A stretch of DNA of 24,000 nucleotides from Phormidium sp. (GTDB lineage: Bacteria; Cyanobacteriota; Cyanobacteriia; Cyanobacteriales; Aerosakkonemataceae), in NCBI GenBank assembly GCA_051013385.1, contig CP143274.1:27157-51156 (forward strand), in the 5' to 3' direction. Within the stretch, counting starts at the first letter, position 1. Every line of letters starts with the position of its first letter. The notes beneath the pieces are model-generated. The model did no database searches. It was not told where the DNA came from and worked only from the letters and a program-made list of their open reading frames with translations. Positions 2,364-11,494 of this stretch are shown here, piece by piece. Position numbers and translations under genes: made by a program.

Positions 2364-5300
2364 ATGCTTAGTGCCATTATTAAATGGGCGATCGCTCGTC
2401 GCTGGTTAGTCATCCTCGGTGCAATTATCGTCACCTTTTGGATTTTTCGCACCATCATCCAGATGCCTCTGGATGTCTTTCCCAGCTTTGCACCTCCCCA
2501 AGTCGAAATTCAAACTGAAGCCCCCGGACTCGCTCCCGAAGAAGTCGAATCTTTAGTCACCTTACCAATTGAAAGTTCGATTAACGGGACTCCCGGAGTT
2601 ACAGCAGTACGCTCTTCCAGTGCATCAGGAATCTCGGTAGTCAAAATTATATTTAATTGGGGAACCGAGATTTATCAGGCCCGCCAGTTAGTAACAGAGC
2701 GATTGCAACAAGCTCAAAGTAAGCTGCCTGAAGGTGTGGAAACCCCACAAATTTCTCCCACCAGTTCTCCTGTTGGCACCGTATTGCAATACGCCTTTAC
2801 ATCTGAAAGCACTCCTTTAATGGAAGTGCGACGCATAGTTGATTGGCAAGTAACAAACCGCATCTTAGCGGTTCCTGGCGTCAGTCAAGTAGTTGCTTAT
2901 GGTGGCGATATTCGTCAGTATCAAGTATTGATTGACCCAGAGAAGTTGAAAGCCTTTAACGTCACTTTAGATGACATTGTAGAAGCAGCTAAAGCCGCAA
3001 ATGTTAATGCTCCAGGTGGCTATTTAATCACTCCCGACAGAGAAAAGTTAATTCGGGGAATTGGGCGGATTGAATCTATTGAAGAATTACAGCAATCAGT
3101 CATTACTGCCCGCAATGGTACGCCTGTAAAAATCTCTGATATTGCTGATGTACAAATTGGTGCGGCTATCAAACGGGGAGATGGCAGTTTTAACGGTCAA
3201 AAGGCCGTAATTTTGATGATTAACAAACAGCCGCAAGCCGACACTCCCACTGTTACCCGTGCTATTGAAGCAGCAATGGAAGAAGTGAAAGCAGGTTTAC
3301 CCAAAGACATTAAAGTTACCCCAACCTTCCGACAAGAAAATTATATTGATTCTTCGATTGAAAATGTCAGAGAAGCTTTATTTGAAGGCAGCATTATTGT
3401 TGCTATTATTTTAATTCCATTTTTAATGAATTGGCGCAACCTGGCAATTTGCTTAACAGCCCTTCCCTTGTCTTTATTAGTTGGAGTTCTACTTCTAAAT
3501 TGGGTAGGCCAAGGTTTAAATACAATGACTTTGGGAGGGTTAGCGGTAGCCATTGGTTCAGCAGTTGACGATGCCATTGTGGATGCTGAGAATGTCTACC
3601 GCAACCTGCGAGAAAACAAGTACTTACCTAATCCACGTCCAGTTTTAGATGTAGTATTTGATGGCTGTCAAGAGGTAAGAGATTCAGTATTTGGAGCTAC
3701 AGTTATTACCATTGTTGTCTTCGCTCCAGTATTTGCTTTAACGGGGGTAGAAGGAAGCATTTTTATTCCGATGGGGTTGGGTTATATGGCAGCAGTTATT
3801 GCTTCTAGCATCACAGCATTGACGGTGACTCCGGCTTTATGTGCTATTCTTTTGCCTTACGGTAATTTGCCAGAAATAGAACCTTGGGTTGCCAGATTTT
3901 TTAAGCGGCTTTATTATCCTTTGTTAACGTTTTCAATGAAGCTTTCAGGAATTATTTTAGTTATAGCCGCTGCTAGTTTAGTGGCAGCAGTTGTAATAGT
4001 TCCTTCTTTTGGAAGAGTGTTTCTACCAGAGTTTCAAGAGCAAACTTTAGTCAATACTTTAACTCTTTATCCAGGTGTATCTCTAGAAGCTACCAATGCC
4101 GCTGGAGAAGCACTTCAGGCAGCACTTAAAGATGACTCTAGATTTCCTTACGTGCAGTTGCGTTCGGGACGTGCGCCAGGAGATGCGGACGCAGCGGGGG
4201 TGAATTTAGCACACTTGGATATTGAGTTGAGCGATGAAGGGATGAAAGATAGGGAAGGGACGCTGGAAAAGCTGCGAGAAGAGTTTAATAAACTACCAGG
4301 AGTTGCACCGAATATTGGCGGTTTTATTTCTCACCGAATGGATGAAGTCTTGTCTGGAGTTAGGAGTGCCATTGCCGTCAAAATTTTCGGTTCCGAATTA
4401 GAGCAACTTCGCACTATTGGCAGCCAAGTCAATGAAGTGATGAAAACTGTTGAAGGAATTGTAGATTTGCAACTTGAACCCCAAGTTCCAGTCGAACAGA
4501 TACAGATTAAGTTTAACCGTTCTGCTGCTTCTCGATATGGTTTGACAGTTGGAAAACTCTCCGAAATCATTGAAACAGCGCTCAATGGGCGAGTGGTATC
4601 TCAAGTATTAGAAAAACAACAAACTTTCGACTTAGTTGTCTGGTTAAAATCAGATGCCCGTCAAAATCTGGATACCATTCGCAATTTGTTAGTTGATACT
4701 CCTGATGGGATTAAAGTTCCATTAGCACAAGTTGCCACCATTGACAATGGCACGGGGCCTAGCACCATCAACCGAGAAAATGTTTCCCGTTTAATTGTTG
4801 TTTCGGCTAATGCTAGCGGCAGAGATTTGCGCTCTATTGTCAATGAAATTCGGGAAAAAGTGAATCAGCAAGTACAAGTTCCTGCTGGTTACTATATTCA
4901 GTATGCAGGGCAATTTGAGGCCCAAGAAAGAGCAACACAAAACATCCTCCTCTTCAGTGCTATAGCTTTTGTAGCTATTACAGTCATCATGTATCTTTCT
5001 GTCAAATCAAATCCATTCCCTCTACCGCCATGATTATGATTAACTTACCCTTAGCCTTGGTGGGGGGAGTATTTTCAGTGGCGATGACTGGAGGAATTAT
5101 TTCTATCGCCTCTCTAGTCGGCTTTGTTACTCTGTTTGGAGTGGCTACTCGTAACGGGTTGTTGCTAGTAGATAATTACAATACAAAATCTGCTGAAGGA
5201 ATGCCTTTAAAAGACCTTATTATTAAAGGGTCGATGGAACGGCTTAATGCGATTTTGATGACTGCTTTTACCTCGGCTTTAGGCTTAGCACCGTTAGTAG

Positions 5301-5494
5301 TAGAGGGTGGGCCAGGTAAAGAGATTTTGCAACCACTTTCGATAGTCGTGTTGGGTGGATTGTTTACTTCTACGGCATTGACGCTGTTAGTTTTACCGGC
5401 CTTGTATGCCAAATTTGGGAAATTTTTGCTGCCGAAGCGAACTATGCCAGTTGTTGAGGACGAGAGAGCAGTTGGAGCCGTCTTTGAGCGGTAA
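2364..5494 (+). pseudogene. CusA/CzcA-family heavy-metal efflux RND permease, frameshifted (889-aa plus 154-aa ORFs)
   Basis: The two consecutive ORFs 2364..5033 and 5030..5494 together look like one ~1041-aa HME-RND pump. Supporting strings are MLSAIIKWAIARRWLVILGAIIV, AVAIGSAVDDAIVDAENVYRNL and the C-terminal LNAILMTAFTSALGLAPLV. The frame switches at a CAAAT CAAAT tandem duplication (5003-5012). Deleting one copy gives a continuous ...MYLSVKSIPSTAMIMINLPLALVGG.... Confidence 0.85.
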
Positions 5495-5575: not shown

Positions 5576-6073
5576 ATGAAATCTGTCAAGTCTCTACTGA
5601 TGGTTCTAGGTAGTGTAAGCTTGATTTTCCTGGGAGCTTGTGCTAACAGTAACCAAGCCACTAACCCAGAGAATAGCCCGAAAAGTACCCCACCAGCTGA
5701 GTCAGCTGCACAAACGACTACCCCAGCCAAAACTGGTTCATCCGGTCATGCCGCAGTCCCTCAAAAAGGTGGTCAAGTTGTCGAGTCAGGTCCCTACCAT
5801 TTAGAGTTTGTCCCTGAAAAAGAAGCTAATGGAACTCATTTAGATTTCTATTTGCAAAGAGGGGACAATCACGAAGCAATACCTAACGCAAAAGTCACAG
5901 CTCAAGTTCAGCTACCAGATGGGACTCAAAAAACAGTTCCCCTCACCTATGACGCTGCGGGTAAACACTACGCAGCTTTGCTTCCTGGACAGTTAGCTGG
6001 TCAATATCAGGTGAAAATTACCTCTAATATTAATGGGGAAAAGGTAGATGGTCGTTTTTCTTTCAATCAATAA
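5576..6073 (+). CDS. Small periplasmic lipoprotein, function unknown (metal-island associated)
   Basis: AGGAG RBS at 5563-5567 and ATG at 5576. Signal peptide with lipobox (SLIFLGAC), a Pro/Thr/Ser-rich linker, then a ~100-aa beta-rich domain (YHLEFVPEKEANGTHLDFYLQ...QYQVKITSNINGEKVDGRFSF). It occupies the position of the third gene of a copBAC-like unit. Confidence 0.6.
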   Translation: MKSVKSLLMVLGSVSLIFLGACANSNQATNPENSPKSTPPAESAAQTTTPAKTGSSGHAAVPQKGGQVVESGPYHLEFVPEKEANGTHLDFYLQRGDNHEAIPNAKVTAQVQLPDGTQKTVPLTYDAAGKHYAALLPGQLAGQYQVKITSNINGEKVDGRFSFNQ

Positions 6074-6082
6074 TCTCTAGAC

Positions 6083-6349
6083 TTCGAGTCAGCTAATTTA
6101 GTACTCGCCGAAGATGACCCCCTGGATGTTGTGCGAACCCTCAAGCTGGCTCAAGCCACTTACTCCAAAATGGTACGAAACCTATTTTGGGCGACTGGAT
6201 ACAACGTTTTAGCAATTCCTTTAGCTGCTGGAGTTGCCTACCCCATAGGTCTTTTGCTGTCTCCAGCTGTAGGAGCTTTGTTCATGAGTCTTTCCACTGT
6301 AATTGTGGCAATCAACGCCGTAACGTTACGTCGAGTCAAGATGGCCTAA
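6083..6349 (+). pseudogene. C-terminal remnant (~88 codons) of a heavy-metal P1B-type ATPase
   Basis: Translation is ESANLVLAEDDPLDVVRTLKLAQATYSKMVRNLFWATGYNVLAIPLAAGVAYPIGLLLSPAVGALFMSLSTVIVAINAVTLRRVK. This is the conserved end of CopA/ZntA-type pumps, covering the last two TM helices. There is no upstream ATPase sequence, and the frame is closed by the TAA at 6071-6073. Confidence 0.75.
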
Positions 6350-6384: not shown

Positions 6385-7290
6385 ATGAAACTATTTTTCA
6401 CGACAATTGCTGCGGTTTCTACCCTATTACTCGCTCAAGGTTGTTCGCCATCTGTGCAATCAAGGGAAACATCGAACTCAGCTGCAACAAAACAGCGCCA
6501 AGAACTTTCGATGGGTAATGAGGAAGCACATAACTCTGCTAAATCGAATCCTCATGGAGGGCATTCGATGGAACATGGGGAGAATTCAGCTCAAGTTCAA
6601 GCTAAACTCACTACTCCAACAAACATTACTCCCAATACTCCCGTTACGTTGGCAATTGATATTCGAGACTCAGATGGAAAAGCGATCGCTAAATTTGACA
6701 CCTTTCAAGAAAAACTGATGCACCTGATTGCTGTTAGCGATGACCTTCAGTTTTTCAATCATATTCATCCCACCTATAAAGGGAACGGACGCTTTGAAGT
6801 TGAAGCCAGTTTTCCCCAACCAGGTGGTTACACGCTTTTCAGCGATTACAAACCATCTGGGAAAACAGAACAAGTCTCGGTTCTGAAAACTCAAGTTCCT
6901 GGAAACAGCCCATCTGCCCCAGCAATAGACTTAAATAGCTCTAAAACTTTCGCTGACACTAAGGCTAATCTGACCTTCTCTCAACCTGCATTGAAAGCTG
7001 GGCAAGAAGTTATGTTGGTGTTCAATTTACAAGAAGCTGCCAGCAATCAACCCGTTAAAGACTTGCAGCCTTACTTGGGAGAACGGGGGCATTTAGTCAT
7101 CATTAAACAATCATCCCCATTGACAAAAGCCGACTACATTCATGCTCATGCTCATGCGATGGAAAATATGCCACCTGGGGAAGTTCATTTTATGACCAGT
7201 TTCCCCAAACCAGGAAAATATAAGCTCTGGGGGCAGTTCAATCGGAATGGCAGAATCGTGACCGCTGATTTCTGGGTAAATGTCCAATAA
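6385..7290 (+). CDS. His-rich secreted (lipo)protein, putative periplasmic metal-binding protein
   Basis: The listed ORF 6187..7290 overlaps the ATPase relic. A GGAG RBS (6376-6379) plus ATG 6385 gives MKLFFTTIAAVSTLLLAQGCSPS, a signal with a lipobox-like Cys. His clusters are present: HNSAKSNPHGGHSMEHGEN, FFNHIHP, DYIHAHAHAMENMPPGEVHF. Confidence 0.7.
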   Translation: MKLFFTTIAAVSTLLLAQGCSPSVQSRETSNSAATKQRQELSMGNEEAHNSAKSNPHGGHSMEHGENSAQVQAKLTTPTNITPNTPVTLAIDIRDSDGKAIAKFDTFQEKLMHLIAVSDDLQFFNHIHPTYKGNGRFEVEASFPQPGGYTLFSDYKPSGKTEQVSVLKTQVPGNSPSAPAIDLNSSKTFADTKANLTFSQPALKAGQEVMLVFNLQEAASNQPVKDLQPYLGERGHLVIIKQSSPLTKADYIHAHAHAMENMPPGEVHFMTSFPKPGKYKLWGQFNRNGRIVTADFWVNVQ

Positions 7291-7301
7291 CTGCGCTAAT
7301 A

Positions 7302-7318
7302 TTTCATCTTGATTTCAT
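7302..7318 (+). promoter_or_regulatory. Direct-repeat box 1: TTTCAT-CTTGA-TTTCAT (putative OmpR-family regulator site)
   Basis: Two identical hexamers sit 11 bp apart centre to centre. A TAATAG -10-like hexamer lies at 7339-7344. The box is upstream of the small peptide ORF at 7481. Confidence 0.45.
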
Positions 7319-7480
7319 CAAGCTATGTCATTGTGAATTAATAGACAGATTCATCTCTAGTTGATATGGAAGATGGGAGATAGAATATCTGTATAGAAAT
7401 TGGCTATAGCTCCTTGACCTCCATCCACCTGAAGACTTGAATCTGTTAGACATGAACACTGGTTATCAGGAGAATTCACC

Positions 7481-7639
7481 ATGATTTTGATGAAGCATAG
7501 TAAAAGCATCATAAGTGCAGCTGGTATCAGTCTGGCATTGCTGGCGCTGACCGCTGGTGCTAGTCTGGCACAAGACCAGCCCCAAACGAGCGGCTGCCCT
7601 TGCTGCCAGCGAATGATGGGACAAGGTTCTTCTAGATAA
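7481..7639 (+). CDS. Unlisted 52-aa secreted Cys/Met-rich peptide
   Basis: AGGAG at 7468-7472 lies 8 nt before ATG 7481. Translation is MILMKHSKSIISAAGISLALLALTAGASLA|QDQPQTSGCPCCQRMMGQGSSR with stop at 7637-7639. It has a typical signal peptide with an A-x-A-type cleavage site. It is below the 60-aa ORF-track cutoff and is followed by a hairpin terminator. Confidence 0.45.
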   Translation: MILMKHSKSIISAAGISLALLALTAGASLAQDQPQTSGCPCCQRMMGQGSSR

Positions 7640-7742
7640 TAGGCAGGTGAGGCGGCAGCGTTCAGTCTGCAATGAGCGGTAGCCAGAACTATCAGAATCA
7701 TGCTTCACGCAGTTCAAGTAGGTACGAAAAACCGAAATATAG

Positions 7743-7773
7743 AAACCCGTTTTCTCTAAGAAAACGGGTTTTT
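7743..7773 (+). terminator. Rho-independent terminator-like hairpin
   Basis: aaacccgttttc (7743-7754) pairs perfectly with gaaaacgggttt (7760-7771) around a 5-nt loop. The T run is short (it continues to 7773). Confidence 0.55.
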
Positions 7774-7777
7774 CAGA

Positions 7778-7846
7778 CTTTAGGGGTAGTTTAATCAAAA
7801 CATCAGAATCGTAACAGCTAACTTTCAGGTAAATGTCCAACAGTAA
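7778..7846 (+). pseudogene. Relic 3' end of a paralog of the His-rich lipoprotein gene
   Basis: This segment translates L*G*FNQNIRIVTANFQVNVQQ*. It aligns with the end of the intact gene at 7225-7290, LWGQFNRNGRIVTADFWVNVQ*. The Trp and Gln codons have become TAG. Confidence 0.55.
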
Positions 7847-7854
7847 CGCTGATA

Positions 7855-7871
7855 TTTCATCTTGATTTCAT
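7855..7871 (+). promoter_or_regulatory. Direct-repeat box 2: TTTCAT-CTTGA-TTTCAT
   Basis: The 17-mer is identical to box 1. TAATAG lies at 7891-7896. The box is upstream of the gene at 8108. Confidence 0.45.
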
Positions 7872-8107
7872 AGTTATCTGTCAATCTAGTTAATAGGGGG
7901 AGTATGCCCGTTTGGCAAAGACATCATTAGCTGGATGAATCCATCAACAGCAAGGCAGCTATCTAAATAACCCCCGCTATTGAGTGAGTAGAGGGGAAAT
8001 TGACTATGGATTTATAAAGTCGAGATGCCTCCCCATTAATAACAGGCTCATTTATTCACAGTGAGTCTGAAACTTGGTTGACGTAGTTGATTCCTTGGAA
8101 AGTCAAA

Positions 8108-8602
8108 ATGAAGAGAATACTGATGAACAATTTGATTTATACGGGTGCAGCATTTCTCCTAGCAATTGCATCTTCCGTTCCGGCTGTCTGGGCAACTGGA
8201 AGACCAAGCGATGCTAAAGTTTCTCATTTAGTTGATAGTGCTGCCTATCCTGATAGCGCTACTGTTCAGAATGCTACCCATCAGTTTGAGGTTCACGTTC
8301 AAGGAAAAGCTCTTTCAGAACTTTCGATTGATTTACCAGAAGAAGTAAGCATCAGTTATGGAATTAAGGTAAAAAATCAATTGGGTCAAAAAATTTCAGC
8401 AACAGTTTCTATTAATGACAGAAAAGCTACTGTGGTTTTTTCCCAACCTGTAGCTCCTGAGACAGTACTGTCAGTCTCTCTACAAGGCGTTCAGACTCCA
8501 GGCTATGACCAAATTTTGCTGTACCGATTCTACGCTAAAAAGGTTGGTCTAACTGCTGAAATTCCACTTGGTACAGCTCGAATTCATACCTACAGAGGAT
8601 AA
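8108..8602 (+). CDS. Secreted protein of unknown function, paralog 1 (possibly DUF2808-like)
   Basis: The listed ORF begins at a TTG (8087). ATG 8108 (MKRILMNNLIY...) or ATG 8123 aligns with the paralog's start. Signal peptide AFLLAIASSVPAVWA. The core is ATHQFEVHVQGKALSELSIDLPEEVSI...RKATVVFSQPVAPETVLSVSLQGV. The family name is a recollection only. Confidence 0.6.
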   Translation: MKRILMNNLIYTGAAFLLAIASSVPAVWATGRPSDAKVSHLVDSAAYPDSATVQNATHQFEVHVQGKALSELSIDLPEEVSISYGIKVKNQLGQKISATVSINDRKATVVFSQPVAPETVLSVSLQGVQTPGYDQILLYRFYAKKVGLTAEIPLGTARIHTYRG

Positions 8603-8615
8603 AGAGACGCTGCTG

Positions 8616-8632
8616 CTTCTTCCTGATTTTAT
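8616..8632 (+). promoter_or_regulatory. Direct-repeat box 3 (degenerate): CTTCTT-CCTGA-TTTTAT
   Basis: It has the same 6-5-6 geometry and the central CCTGA of box 4. TAAATA lies at 8651-8656, at a distance similar to that seen at boxes 1 and 2. It is upstream of the gene at 8694. Confidence 0.3.
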
Positions 8633-8693
8633 TCAAGGGATTTAGGCGAATAAATAGCGAGTTCATTAAGTTAATTGTTCAAGGAGAACCGCA

Positions 8694-9173
8694 ATGAAAA
8701 AGCTGATTTATGCAGGTGTAGCATTTACCCTAATAATAGCCGCTTCAATTTCCTCTGCTAGGGCAGCTGGAAGCTTACGGAATGCCAATGCTCCTCACAT
8801 TGTCCATAGTGGCTCGCATACTAGTAATCCTCGTTTTCTTGATGCTACTCATCATTTTGAAATTCACGTTCAAGGGCCTGCTCTTTCAGAACTTTCAATT
8901 GACTTACCAGAGGATTTGAGCATTCGTAGGGGAATTGAGGTAGAAAATAAATCGGGTCAGAGAATCCCGGCGACCGTTTCTATCAGAGATAGAAAAGCTA
9001 CAATAGTTTTCTCTCAACCTGTACCTCCTGAGACAACGCTATCAATCAAAATGCAAGGTGTTAATGCTCGATTTTATCGGAGCATTAGGCAGTACATGGT
9101 CTATAGCAAGATGGTTGGTTTGAATGCAGAAATTCCACTTGGTACAGTTCGGATTCAAACCTCCTCTCGATAA
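8694..9173 (+). CDS. Secreted protein of unknown function, paralog 2
   Basis: AGGAG RBS. Signal peptide MKKLIYAGVAFTLIIAASISSARA. The core ATHHFEIHVQGPALSELSIDLPEDLSI...RKATIVFSQPVPPETTLSIKMQGV is roughly two-thirds identical by eye to 8108..8602. Confidence 0.7.
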   Translation: MKKLIYAGVAFTLIIAASISSARAAGSLRNANAPHIVHSGSHTSNPRFLDATHHFEIHVQGPALSELSIDLPEDLSIRRGIEVENKSGQRIPATVSIRDRKATIVFSQPVPPETTLSIKMQGVNARFYRSIRQYMVYSKMVGLNAEIPLGTVRIQTSSR

Positions 9174-9287: not shown

Positions 9288-9304
9288 TTTCATCCTGATT
9301 TCAC
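9288..9304 (+). promoter_or_regulatory. Direct-repeat box 4: TTTCAT-CCTGA-TTTCAC
   Basis: It has the same 11-bp-spaced hexamers and lies ~200 bp upstream of the response-regulator gene. It is preceded by gggtaaac, which resembles the ggtaaatg preceding boxes 1 and 2. Confidence 0.4.
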
Positions 9305-9504: not shown

Positions 9505-10209
9505 ATGAGAGTACTGCTAGTTGAAGATGAGCCAGACCTGGGTGCCGCAATTAAACGAACCTTAAATCAGCACAAGTATGTGGTTGACTGGGCGCTCGAC
9601 GGCACTGAAGCTTGGAACTACCTAGACAACCCGAAAACAAAGTATACGCTAGCTATTTTTGACTGGTTGATACCAGGAATATCAGGTTTGGAACTGCTGC
9701 GGCGATTGCGTGCTAGAAAAAATCCCCTTCCAGTGTTAATGCTTACAGCAAAAGACAGAATGGAAGATAAAATAACTGGTTTAGATGCGGGGGCAGATGA
9801 TTATCTGGTCAAGCCGTTTGGTATGGCGGAATTGCTAGCACGGTTGCGAGCTTTGCAAAGACGCTCGCCTCAAATCCAACCGGAACAACTTCATGTAGGT
9901 ACTCTCACTTTGGACTACGCCACTCGAAGTGTTTATCGTCTCGCTCACAACGATGAAAAGCAGGAAATTCCCCTCACTAATAAAGAATTTCAGCTACTCG
10001 AATATTTTATGAAACACCCTAACCAAATTGTCACCAGCGATCAAATCCGCAATCAGGTTTGGGAAATGAGCGCAGATGCGATCAGTAATGTGGTAGCCGC
10101 TCAAGTACGCTTGCTCAGACGCCAACTAGCATCGGTAGGAAGCGCTCATTTGATTGAAACTATTCACGGTACTGGCTACCGTTTCAATACATCTGATGAA
10201 CCAAAATAA
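9505..10209 (+). CDS. OmpR/PhoB-family response regulator (CopR/CusR-like)
   Basis: Receiver domain MRVLLVEDEPDLG...FDWLIPGISGLELLRRLR...PVLMLTAKD...GADDYLVKPF. Winged-helix output domain LTNKEFQLLEYFMKHPNQIVTSDQIRNQVW...IETIHGTGYRF. Confidence 0.9.
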   Translation: MRVLLVEDEPDLGAAIKRTLNQHKYVVDWALDGTEAWNYLDNPKTKYTLAIFDWLIPGISGLELLRRLRARKNPLPVLMLTAKDRMEDKITGLDAGADDYLVKPFGMAELLARLRALQRRSPQIQPEQLHVGTLTLDYATRSVYRLAHNDEKQEIPLTNKEFQLLEYFMKHPNQIVTSDQIRNQVWEMSADAISNVVAAQVRLLRRQLASVGSAHLIETIHGTGYRFNTSDEPK

Positions 10210-11494
10210 GTTATTCTCTCAAACTCGTCTGCGATTAGCGACTTCCTATGCCGTTGTGATGGGCTTTATCTTAGCTCTATGCGGTTTGGGTGTATATGAG
10301 GCGATTGTTCACGCTCACTGGCAAACTTTAGACCGAGAACTGGAAACGGTTGCAGGAACTTTACATGACAGTATTGAAAACAAACTCAAGCTACCCGGAC
10401 GTTTGGAACCGATAGAAGAGAAACTGTTTTCTGTCTCTCCCTCGAAACGCCACACTTTAGGAGCAATTTACCAAGGCAACTATTATGTGCGGTTGTTAGA
10501 TCGTTCCGAACGAATTGTTGCGGAAGCTGGTTCCGTACCCCTTGGTTTACCTGTCACATCACCTAAAGTGACTTGGCAGAATCTCAAGGATAGCGAAGGG
10601 AATCGTTATCATCAAATTTCTCTATCCCTGCATACCCAGGATAATCTTTCTTGGGGATATATGCAGATGGGGCGGAGTCTCAAAGACCTCGATGACTACC
10701 TCAAAACTGTTAAATTGGTATTGTTTTTTGGATTGCCGATCGCGATGATTTTGGTGGCTGGTTCTAGTTGGTGGCTGGCAGGATTGGCTATGCAACCAAT
10801 TTACCAATCTTATCGCCAGATTCAACAGTTTACAGCTGATGCTGCTCACGAGTTACGAACGCCTTTAGCTGCTACACAAGCGACCGTTGAATCAGCATTG
10901 GAAATGCCTCAGATGGATGAACTTGAGGTACGTGATATCTTAAGAACTATAGAGCGTCAAAATCGCAGGCTAATTCAGCTGGTTGCCGATTTGTTGTTGC
11001 TGGCACGCCTGGAGCGACAAGCTGTACCGATGCGACTGAAAGCTTGTTGCTTGAATGATTTGGTTGGCGATTTAATCGAGGAATTTGAAGCTTTGGCGAT
11101 CGCTAATGGTTTAACTCTGGCTGCTGATATTCGGGGGAACCACCCAGTAGAGGTAGTGGGTGACGAAGAGCAACTGTATCGCTTGGTTTCTAATTTGATG
11201 GTGAATGCCATCCAGTATACTCCTGCCGGAGGGAAGGTAATAGTGGTTTTATACCGCAGCGATCGCTATGCTGCGATCGAAGTTCAAGATACTGGTATTG
11301 GGATTGCACCCACCGAACAAAAGCGGATTTTCGATCGCTTTTATCGAGTTAATACCGATCGTTCTCGCAGTACAGGTGGGTCAGGTTTAGGATTAGCAAT
11401 TGCTCAAGCTATTGTTCAGGCACATGGAGGCGATCTACAAGTACAAAGCGAATTGAGCAAAGGTAGTACTTTTACGATTAGTCTACTAGTTTGA
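10196..11494 (+). CDS. Sensor histidine kinase, two TM helices with a periplasmic loop (CopS/CusS-like)
   Basis: The likely start ATG 10196 (MNQNKLFSQTRLRLATSY...) overlaps the regulator's stop by 14 nt. H-box FTADAAHELRTPLA, N-box LVSNLMVNAIQYT, G1 VQDTGIGI, G2 GGSGLGLAIAQ. The TM helices are VVMGFILALCGLGVY and LVLFFGLPIAMILVAGSSWWLAGLA. Confidence 0.9.
   Translation: MNQNKLFSQTRLRLATSYAVVMGFILALCGLGVYEAIVHAHWQTLDRELETVAGTLHDSIENKLKLPGRLEPIEEKLFSVSPSKRHTLGAIYQGNYYVRLLDRSERIVAEAGSVPLGLPVTSPKVTWQNLKDSEGNRYHQISLSLHTQDNLSWGYMQMGRSLKDLDDYLKTVKLVLFFGLPIAMILVAGSSWWLAGLAMQPIYQSYRQIQQFTADAAHELRTPLAATQATVESALEMPQMDELEVRDILRTIERQNRRLIQLVADLLLLARLERQAVPMRLKACCLNDLVGDLIEEFEALAIANGLTLAADIRGNHPVEVVGDEEQLYRLVSNLMVNAIQYTPAGGKVIVVLYRSDRYAAIEVQDTGIGIAPTEQKRIFDRFYRVNTDRSRSTGGSGLGLAIAQAIVQAHGGDLQVQSELSKGSTFTISLLV

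Follow-up and report, generated by a model that had tools for sequence, protein, structure and literature searches.

The small gene and its local signals

The DNA analyzed here, a window of 24,000 nucleotides (nt) from Phormidium sp. (contig CP143274.1, positions 27,157 to 51,156), carries among genes of metal efflux and metal sensing a small gene that is the subject of this report, an open reading frame (ORF) for 52 amino acids (aa) at 7481-7639 (+), present exactly as a preliminary description of the sequence had given it. The AGGAG motif, signal-peptide-like N-terminus, CPCC..MM tail, upstream box, and terminator hairpin claimed there are likewise all in place. AGGAG, the ribosome-binding site (RBS), lies at 7468-7472 (+), 8 nt ahead of the ATG, and a purine-rich RBS stands 7 to 12 nt before the start in all homologs. 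Codons 1 to 30 (7481-7570, +) encode a predicted cleavable Sec signal peptide, with an n-region (MILMKHSKS) that includes the basic residues K5, H6, and K8, a hydrophobic h-region, and a c-region (TAGASLA) followed by QD. Codons 31 to 52 and the stop (7571-7639, +) make up the predicted mature peptide of 22 aa, QDQPQTSGCPCCQRMMGQGSSR, in which C39-P40-C41-C42 (7595-7606, +) precedes M45-M46 (7613-7618, +).

Upstream of the gene, an exact direct-repeat box TTTCAT-N5-TTTCAT, TTTCATCTTGATTTCAT (7302-7318, +), forms a distal promoter element. Since it spans 163 to 179 nt upstream of the ATG, the 5' leader would be long. A probable -10 region, TGAATTAAT (7334-7342, +), follows 15 nt past the box. 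Downstream, an intrinsic terminator hairpin (7741-7773, +) with a 15-bp stem, a 3-nt loop, and a U-run has a folding free energy of -18.4 kcal/mol (z = -5.4) and is kept in 7 relatives, with one compensatory pair. With a terminator of its own, the gene is monocistronic, and box, RBS, and terminator delimit a unit whose box is that of the copM and copB promoters of Synechocystis pSYSX.

A protein-coding gene

Six-frame searches of related genomes, a 5.8-billion-protein collection, and public contigs recovered 14 distinct homologous coding sequences. The reading frame of the 52-aa ORF is open in all 14 and no other frame is; the other five have stops in nearly all homologs, with a few antisense frames open in single ones. 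The ratio of nonsynonymous to synonymous substitution rates (dN/dS) comes to 0.29 for the pair with the nearest relative and 0.36 for the pair with the next nearest, with a mean of 0.30 over 32 informative pairs, while the other five frames of the same alignment give 0.52 to 1.84. Length differences between the ORFs are multiples of three, and Cys codons switch between TGC and TGT with the residue retained. Conservation and dN/dS were the checks proposed in the preliminary description, and both speak for the gene: the ORF is kept in syntenic and rearranged metal-resistance loci with its Cys and Met residues conserved, and dN/dS, at about 0.3, is not near 1. We therefore have little doubt that 7481-7639 is a real protein-coding gene.

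Two minus-strand ORFs over the same region (7357-7701 and 7466-7840), which the preliminary description had set aside, are rejected here as well, both antisense frames being broken by stops in most relatives. A 40-codon ORF in the 3' region (7672-7794) was also rejected, its start codon being absent in one relative (L062). The gene had been called unannotated, and this holds: the exact peptide is absent from ~15 billion predicted proteins, and the few homologs that are annotated are always named hypothetical protein, e.g., BAZ47205.1 from a Chondrocystis sp. NIES-4102 plasmid and MBD1938655.1 from Microcoleus.

That the ORF is nonfunctional, either a chance reading frame or a regulatory leader ORF in a conserved noncoding RNA, is extremely unlikely. 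Among the closest relatives the flanking untranslated regions are well conserved too, and AlphaFold2 run on a 35-member alignment of the family returned no confident fold (predicted local distance difference test, pLDDT, 59), with a low-confidence helix at residues 7 to 30, the signal peptide, and a short helix at 40 to 49. Against this stand the frame-specific selection and in-frame indels and, across 35 divergent members, a Cys triad that is kept despite differing flanks and promoters. At the RNA level, an Rfam scan of 7200-8100 gave only a sub-threshold match to a miRNA model, and consensus folding found the terminator to be the sole conserved structure of the 3' region in 7 relatives, so that a second, small-RNA function is unsupported. 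Moreover, because its own terminator ends it, the gene leads no downstream cistron, as a leader ORF would.

A family of predicted exported mini-peptides built on a CxCC-Met core

A profile search of 1.84 billion representative proteins (E ≤ 0.001) yielded 29 proteins of 49 to 93 aa with a common plan: behind a signal peptide with small residues at -3/-1, a polar linker rich in Q, T, N, and P leads to the core G-C-x-C-C-[KQ]-x-M, which is followed by a Met-rich tail in forms such as MM, MQQM, and MPMPMP. In the 35-member alignment, the C41-C42 pair is invariant, C39 and M45 are each present in at least 90% of members, and the Cys triad with the following Met comprises the most conserved residues of the mature part. 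The linker, by comparison, ranges from ~5 to ~60 residues. Both the peptide itself and the alignment have the features of a Sec signal peptide, that is, a basic n-region, an h-region, and small residues at -3/-1, with Ala at -1 in at least 90% of the 35 members. A lipobox with Cys at +1 was not found, no aligned member having such a Cys after the h-region. From these features we consider it likely, with good confidence, that the peptide is exported and cleaved.

Long-linker forms of 96 to 107 aa with the same ends exist in two genomes of the window's genus and in others. The genomes of this genus that do not have the 52-aa form have instead a form of 107 aa that shares the signal peptide and has an GCSCCKNMMNNM core (L034:1489-1812; L033). 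In L034, this form adjoins a tyrosine-recombinase-like gene, which suggests mobility. A separate observation concerns genome G295, where a 53-aa ORF (L031:1459-1620, -) with a similar signal peptide but a different, Cys-rich metallothionein-like tail, CGCGKCDKGCGCGG (CGCGKCDKGCGCGGSGSC), lies immediately 3' of a gene for a CopC-like lipoprotein and may represent another class of exported Cys-rich mini-peptides.

Members were verified in 14 of 401 genomes sampled from the window's order, and in a 401-genome sample of the phylum every match falls within that order. Eight genomes with weak profile matches (G010, G237, G166, G004, G071, G185, G347, and G350) were not counted, as these matches lie where there is no CxCC ORF and represent signal-peptide noise. 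The weakest match, P0035, which UniRef names a Pentapeptide MXKDX repeat protein, shares just CECCKDM and the signal peptide with the family, and the model of that name in NCBIfam matched neither P0035 nor the cyanobacterial members at E ≤ 10. Searches of known families were equally negative: Pfam and NCBIfam gave zero matches to the window peptide and 7 relatives even at E ≤ 10, a PDB profile search gave only signal-peptide look-alikes (E > 0.4), and neither literature searches nor curated family libraries yielded a description of this family. Searches of a plasmid database by megablast with the window DNA and by tblastn with the peptide also returned nothing, although such a short, filtered query is insensitive, since homologs do occur on Chondrocystis plasmids. 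This is a novel, uncurated family of putative exported soft-metal-binding proteins of resistance islands, unusually small and defined by the CxCC-Met core.

One small gene, probably under two classes of metal sensors

The box in front of the small gene occurs three times in the window (at 7302, 7855, and 9288, with at most one mismatch) against 0.44 expected, and none of 100 shuffles reached three. The exact box is found twice within 12 kb of Synechocystis pSYSX, directly upstream of copM and of copB, and the operons of both genes were found by experiment to depend on CopRS and copper (PMC4182526). The geometry of box, 15 nt, and TGGAATTAG also recurs at the pSYSX copM promoter, the spacing to a TGRAATTA element being equal at the two promoters. 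Because the box recurs at copM and copB, we regard 7302-7318 as the putative binding site of a CopR-like response regulator. The promoter of the small gene thus has the direct repeat of the pSYSX copM/copB type, and homologs of CopR and CopS are encoded in the same window, as would be expected of a member of a CopRS regulon.

Comparison of homologs reveals three promoter arrangements. In the first, the box lies 175 to 179 nt before the ATG, as at the window, G033, G196, and L061-L067 loci; G026 has a close variant of the box nearer to the start. The second, at nine loci, is a MerR-type promoter with CTTGACT, a 19- to 20-nt spacer that holds the perfect dyad CTCTAG..CTAGAG, and a -10 element, the operator pattern at the nine loci reading CTTGACTCT..dyad..AGAGT. 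A merR-like gene is immediately divergent at three of the loci (L050, L053, and L055) and two genes off at L071. In G123, the divergent regulator precedes a Cu-type P-ATPase. The third arrangement, in the window group, is a degenerate MerR-type promoter with CTTGA, a partial dyad, a 17- to 18-nt spacer, and a weak -10. In the window, this relic occupies 7414-7442 (+), with TTGACC, 17 nt, and TTGAAT, and is placed at -68 from the ATG, the same distance as in the intact promoters. A relic promoter in the window group points to capture of the gene between MerR and two-component control, and judging from these promoters it has evidently moved from MerR control into a two-component regulon, or in the reverse direction. 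Established here are purifying selection on the gene and its association with metal islands and with metal-regulator promoters.

The MerR-type loci have also undergone changes of their own. In the Myxosarcina/Chondrocystis-type loci L048, L049, L051, and L060, the divergent merR-like gene upstream of the small gene is cut to its first 22 codons, followed by a 201-aa ORF of unknown family, and an intact 148-aa merR-like regulator is found on a sister plasmid (L050). The L053 regulator is truncated and fused to unrelated sequence. At all of these loci, the small gene's MerR-type promoter is intact. In G051 (L071:598-1369, -), two genes for small thioredoxin-like CPLC proteins and one for a MerR-family regulator are divergent from a long-linker member.

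The genomic setting

The window encodes a CopBAC-like efflux set upstream of the small gene, with a membrane-fusion protein (502-2199, +), a frameshifted RND pump (2364-5494, +), and a CopC-like lipoprotein (5576-6073, +) that is 59% identical over 100 aa to the product of the gene after copA in pSYSX. The RND gene is split into ORFs of 889 and 154 aa in different frames at a tandem CAAAT CAAAT (5003-5012), while its relatives in L047 and L053 are single uninterrupted ORFs of ~1040 aa. The stretch between the CopC-like gene and the next contains the orphaned C-terminus of a heavy-metal P-type ATPase (6131-6349), whose counterparts are the ends of the full-length ATPases of L051 and L055. The gene that immediately precedes the small gene (6385-7290, +) encodes a His-rich exported protein of the YtkA type (Pfam YtkA).

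Following the small-gene terminator is a decayed copy of the 3' end of this YtkA-like gene together with a second exact box (7778-7871, +; repeat D2), 77% identical to 7225-7318. The decayed copy itself (7778-7840), which contains stops, corresponds to the last ~20 codons. It is also present in four relatives (L061, L062, L065, and L067), and this conservation indicates that the duplication framing the small-gene cassette is old. The exact box at 7855-7871 precedes the first of two tandem DUF2808 paralogs (8087-9173, +; 71% identical over 300 nt), and a weaker resemblance (D6) lies at 8610-8629 before the second. Several relatives have DUF2808 genes downstream of the small gene. The remaining box, at 9288-9304, stands before the two-component genes, which encode a CopR-like response regulator (9505-10209, +; NCBIfam RppA), 63% identical to pSYSX CopR, and a CopS-like kinase (10154-11494, +; NCBIfam RppB), 53% identical to pSYSX CopS. 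RefSeq names CopR and CopS of pSYSX RppA and RppB as well. No DUF305 gene is present in the window; DUF305 genes do flank homologs elsewhere.

At homolog loci, neighbors were identified by tblastn and annotation, with several neighboring ORFs left unscanned. The order YtkA-like gene, small gene, DUF2808 gene recurs in metagenomic contigs and contigs of metagenome-assembled genomes that carry P0002 and P0005, and in these relatives the whole unit of small gene and flanks aligns, including the decayed copy at 7778-7840. Other loci are rearranged but have the same kinds of neighbors, namely, membrane-fusion protein, RND pump, CopC-like protein, response regulator and kinase, and MerR-family regulators. 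Further neighbors elsewhere include CopM-family DUF305 proteins (NCBIfam CopM), CopA-type Cu ATPase, multicopper oxidase, and a Csp-like Cys-rich four-helix protein. Every locus with more than a few kilobases of flank has metal genes. In pSYSX, no homolog of the small peptide was found after copC.

Some islands hold further genes of note. At L065:580-1785 and L067:1663-2868, in islands with P0005, a phytochelatin-synthase-like gene (PF05023) lies within the RND pump cluster, and genes for a PALP (cysteine-synthase-like) protein and an EamA transporter follow further along, which hints at thiol-peptide metabolism in these islands. In L051 (5672-6019, +), and also in L048 and L049, a 115-aa Cys-rich protein akin to the Csp1-family four-helix-bundle copper storage proteins (NCBIfam TIGR04401, below cut-off) is encoded 2 to 3 kb from the small gene.

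Cleaved peptide or membrane anchor

The preliminary description offered two functions for the peptide, a periplasmic metal buffer or chaperone and a signaling peptide for the kinase. The first is favored by our analysis. The second is weakened, because many members sit at MerR-type loci with no kinase gene found in the 13 to 17 kb fetched and the linker varies tenfold in length.

A related explanation is that the product stays uncleaved, as a small membrane-anchored protein whose periplasmic Cys/Met tail modulates the CopS-like kinase or the RND pump in a metal- or redox-dependent manner. Such roles have analogies in the feedback of MgrB on PhoQ and the action of AcrZ on AcrB. MgrB in particular, at ~47 aa, has a hydrophobic segment near its N-terminus and cysteines in the periplasm, and its gene belongs to the regulon of the two-component system on which the protein feeds back. 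The hydrophobic segment and LTAGASLA are unusually conserved for a signal peptide, the window gene belongs by its promoter to the putative regulon of the neighboring kinase pair, and genes for a membrane-fusion protein or RND pump often adjoin the small gene, all of which would suit a membrane anchor. However, the small residues at -3/-1 and the polar ones at +1/+2 are kept family-wide while the h-region varies freely in distant members, which is the pattern of a cleaved signal peptide. A linker of ~5 to ~60 residues fits a fixed docking geometry poorly, and many members sit at the MerR-controlled loci described above, with no kinase gene found in the flanks fetched. Nor was sequence similarity detected to MgrB, whose anchor is uncleaved and which, as a kinase partner, differs from a family that also occurs where no kinase gene lies in the fetched flanks. 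We consider a membrane-anchored modulator unlikely.

A candidate copper buffer of the periplasm

The reading that we favor, with moderate confidence, is a metal-induced, Sec-exported mini-peptide that binds Cu(I) as a buffer or chaperone, its export, binding, and induction being deduced from sequence features and gene context. In this scheme, a metal sensor would induce the gene, in the window a CopRS-like two-component system acting through the TTTCAT-N5-TTTCAT box. The 52-aa precursor would be exported through the Sec pathway and cut by signal peptidase after ASLA, releasing a peptide of ~22 residues, whose destination would be the periplasm or perhaps the thylakoid lumen or the medium. There, the C-x-C-C thiols and nearby Met thioethers would serve as ligands of a soft metal, most probably Cu(I). 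Small Cu-thiolate clusters would probably be shared between peptides, since so short a chain could hardly enclose one alone. In this way, the peptide would provide a quick and inexpensive first line of copper buffering or, alternatively, would ferry metal to the CopBAC-like pump or to other copper proteins of the periplasm. The soft-metal role suggested in the preliminary description is in keeping with the metal-gene context and with the two kinds of metal-regulator promoters, and the neighboring genes make copper the probable metal.

Several observations weigh against this interpretation. In the oxidizing periplasm, the three Cys residues could pair in disulfides rather than bind metal. A frameshift interrupts the neighboring RND pump gene in this genome, so the pump may be inactive here, or the frameshift may be an assembly error. 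In close relatives, the ratio of nonsynonymous to synonymous differences (pN/pS) is 0.32 in the signal-peptide region and 0.53 in the mature region, and this stronger conservation of the hydrophobic segment could reflect a role of its own. As for copper, the MerR-type regulators fall below the cut-off of every subtype model and have a Cys at the start of the dimerization helix, a feature typical of divalent-metal sensors. The Chondrocystis islands, moreover, also have CadC, CDF, and "coaT" genes, which makes some of the islands multi-metal.

The last of these points raise the question of whether the same architecture and mechanism serve another thiophilic metal, such as Cd(II), Zn(II), Pb(II), Hg(II), or Ag(I). 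The CTTGACTCT..AGAGT operators resemble the ZntR, PbrR, and CadR type more than that of CueR, in line with the regulator Cys and the CadC, CDF, and "coaT" genes. Yet the most constant neighbors are copper specific, comprising CopM-family DUF305 proteins, CopBAC and CopRS homologs with the pSYSX box, a Cu-type P1B ATPase (TIGR01511, above cut-off), a multicopper oxidase, and a Csp-like protein. In addition, a Met-rich tail is a typical trait of Cu(I)/Ag(I) sites. A metal other than copper therefore appears improbable to us.

The short Cys-rich core after an N-terminal leader, in a copper context, could also be read as the precursor of a modified and secreted natural product, chalkophore-like or akin to a ribosomally synthesized and post-translationally modified peptide (RiPP), that chelates copper outside the cell. 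There is a precedent for extracellular copper capture in cyanobacteria, as CopM has been reported in extracellular fractions and vesicles (PMC12292863). In contrast to a RiPP leader, however, the leader here is a standard Sec signal peptide. No MbnB/C-like, radical SAM, YcaO, or lanthionine synthetase gene lies beside the small gene in the window, and no modifying enzyme recurs among the identified neighbors of homolog loci, where several ORFs were left unscanned. We regard a modified chelator as very unlikely, behind either of the two preceding alternatives in plausibility.

Relation to known metal-binding proteins

Returning to the candidate copper buffer, none of the known systems compared here is a homolog, and two come closest by analogy. 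CopG (DUF411) is a protein of ~150 aa. It resides in the periplasm, its gene is linked to copA and to export genes of the cus type, and it holds a tetranuclear Cu cluster by a CxCC motif and two adjacent Met residues (review, PMC7558416). The peptide is likewise predicted to be exported, and its CPCC followed by MM (C39-P-C41-C42, M45-M46) gives the same combination of CxCC and adjacent Met. CopG differs, however, in having a folded thioredoxin-like domain, whereas the peptide has ~22 residues when mature, no confident fold, and no match to the DUF411 model. The resemblance is one of motif and not of homology.

PcoE is strongly copper induced via CusRS and is thought to sequester copper until the main system is up (PMC7558416). 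Like PcoE and SilE, which are small, disordered, exported Met-rich binders of Cu(I)/Ag(I), the peptide would be a small exported binder, and its gene is monocistronic with its own regulator box. In contrast, it has a three-Cys core, no sequence similarity to them, and no Pfam or NCBIfam family match, and among the genomes sampled its family is found in one cyanobacterial order only. PcoE and SilE are also far larger, with several Met/His sites and no Cys. By analogy, then, CopG appears to be the closest chemical precedent and PcoE the closest architectural one.

CusF, the chaperone of CusCBA, is another small exported protein that binds Cu(I)/Ag(I). Its gene accompanies that of an HME-RND pump, and the peptide might play a comparable part for the adjacent CopBAC-like pump. 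CusF is a folded beta-barrel with Met/His/Trp ligands and is cotranscribed in the cus operon, whereas the peptide gene has its own promoter and terminator and its product does not match the CusF model. CopM (DUF305), from the Synechocystis copMRS operon, is CopRS induced, exported, and an extracellular copper binder (PMC4182526, PMC12292863). The same box lies upstream of copM, and CopM-family genes neighbor many peptide homologs, but CopM forms a helical bundle of ~200 aa, uses Met/His as ligands, and is unrelated to the peptide in sequence.

The metallothioneins SmtA/BmtA and the methanobactin-type precursor MbnA are, like the peptide, short Cys-rich metal-binding polypeptides. None of their family models matches the peptide. 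SmtA is cytosolic, has no signal peptide, and adopts a zinc-finger-like fold, in contrast to the N-terminal signal peptide here. MbnA needs the modifying enzymes MbnB and MbnC and has no Sec signal, whereas every neighbor of the small gene in the window is assigned to efflux, YtkA, DUF2808, or a two-component system.

A bolder version of the copper reading, which we put forward only tentatively and consider possible but doubtful, is that, of all known copper-cluster peptides made on ribosomes and exported by Sec, these would be the smallest. Such a 20-residue "periplasmic mini-metallothionein" would form CopG-like inter-chain Cu(I)-thiolate clusters and would be an uncharacterized mobile accessory of copper islands, moved between MerR and CopRS sensors.

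Implications for copper handling in cyanobacteria

Periplasmic copper handling in cyanobacteria is known chiefly from Synechocystis, with CopRS, CopBAC, and CopM, and no small thiol peptide that is exported figures in a 2025 review on cyanobacterial copper. The family described here is a candidate new component, mostly missed by annotation pipelines or labeled hypothetical. It also offers a clear case of one small gene rewired between two metal-sensor classes. Its CxCC-Met site is minimal and chemically tractable, accessible by peptide synthesis. If the peptide is indeed a copper buffer or a carrier for the RND pump, it could help explain differences between strains in tolerance to copper algaecides and might serve as a compact genetically encoded copper chelator.

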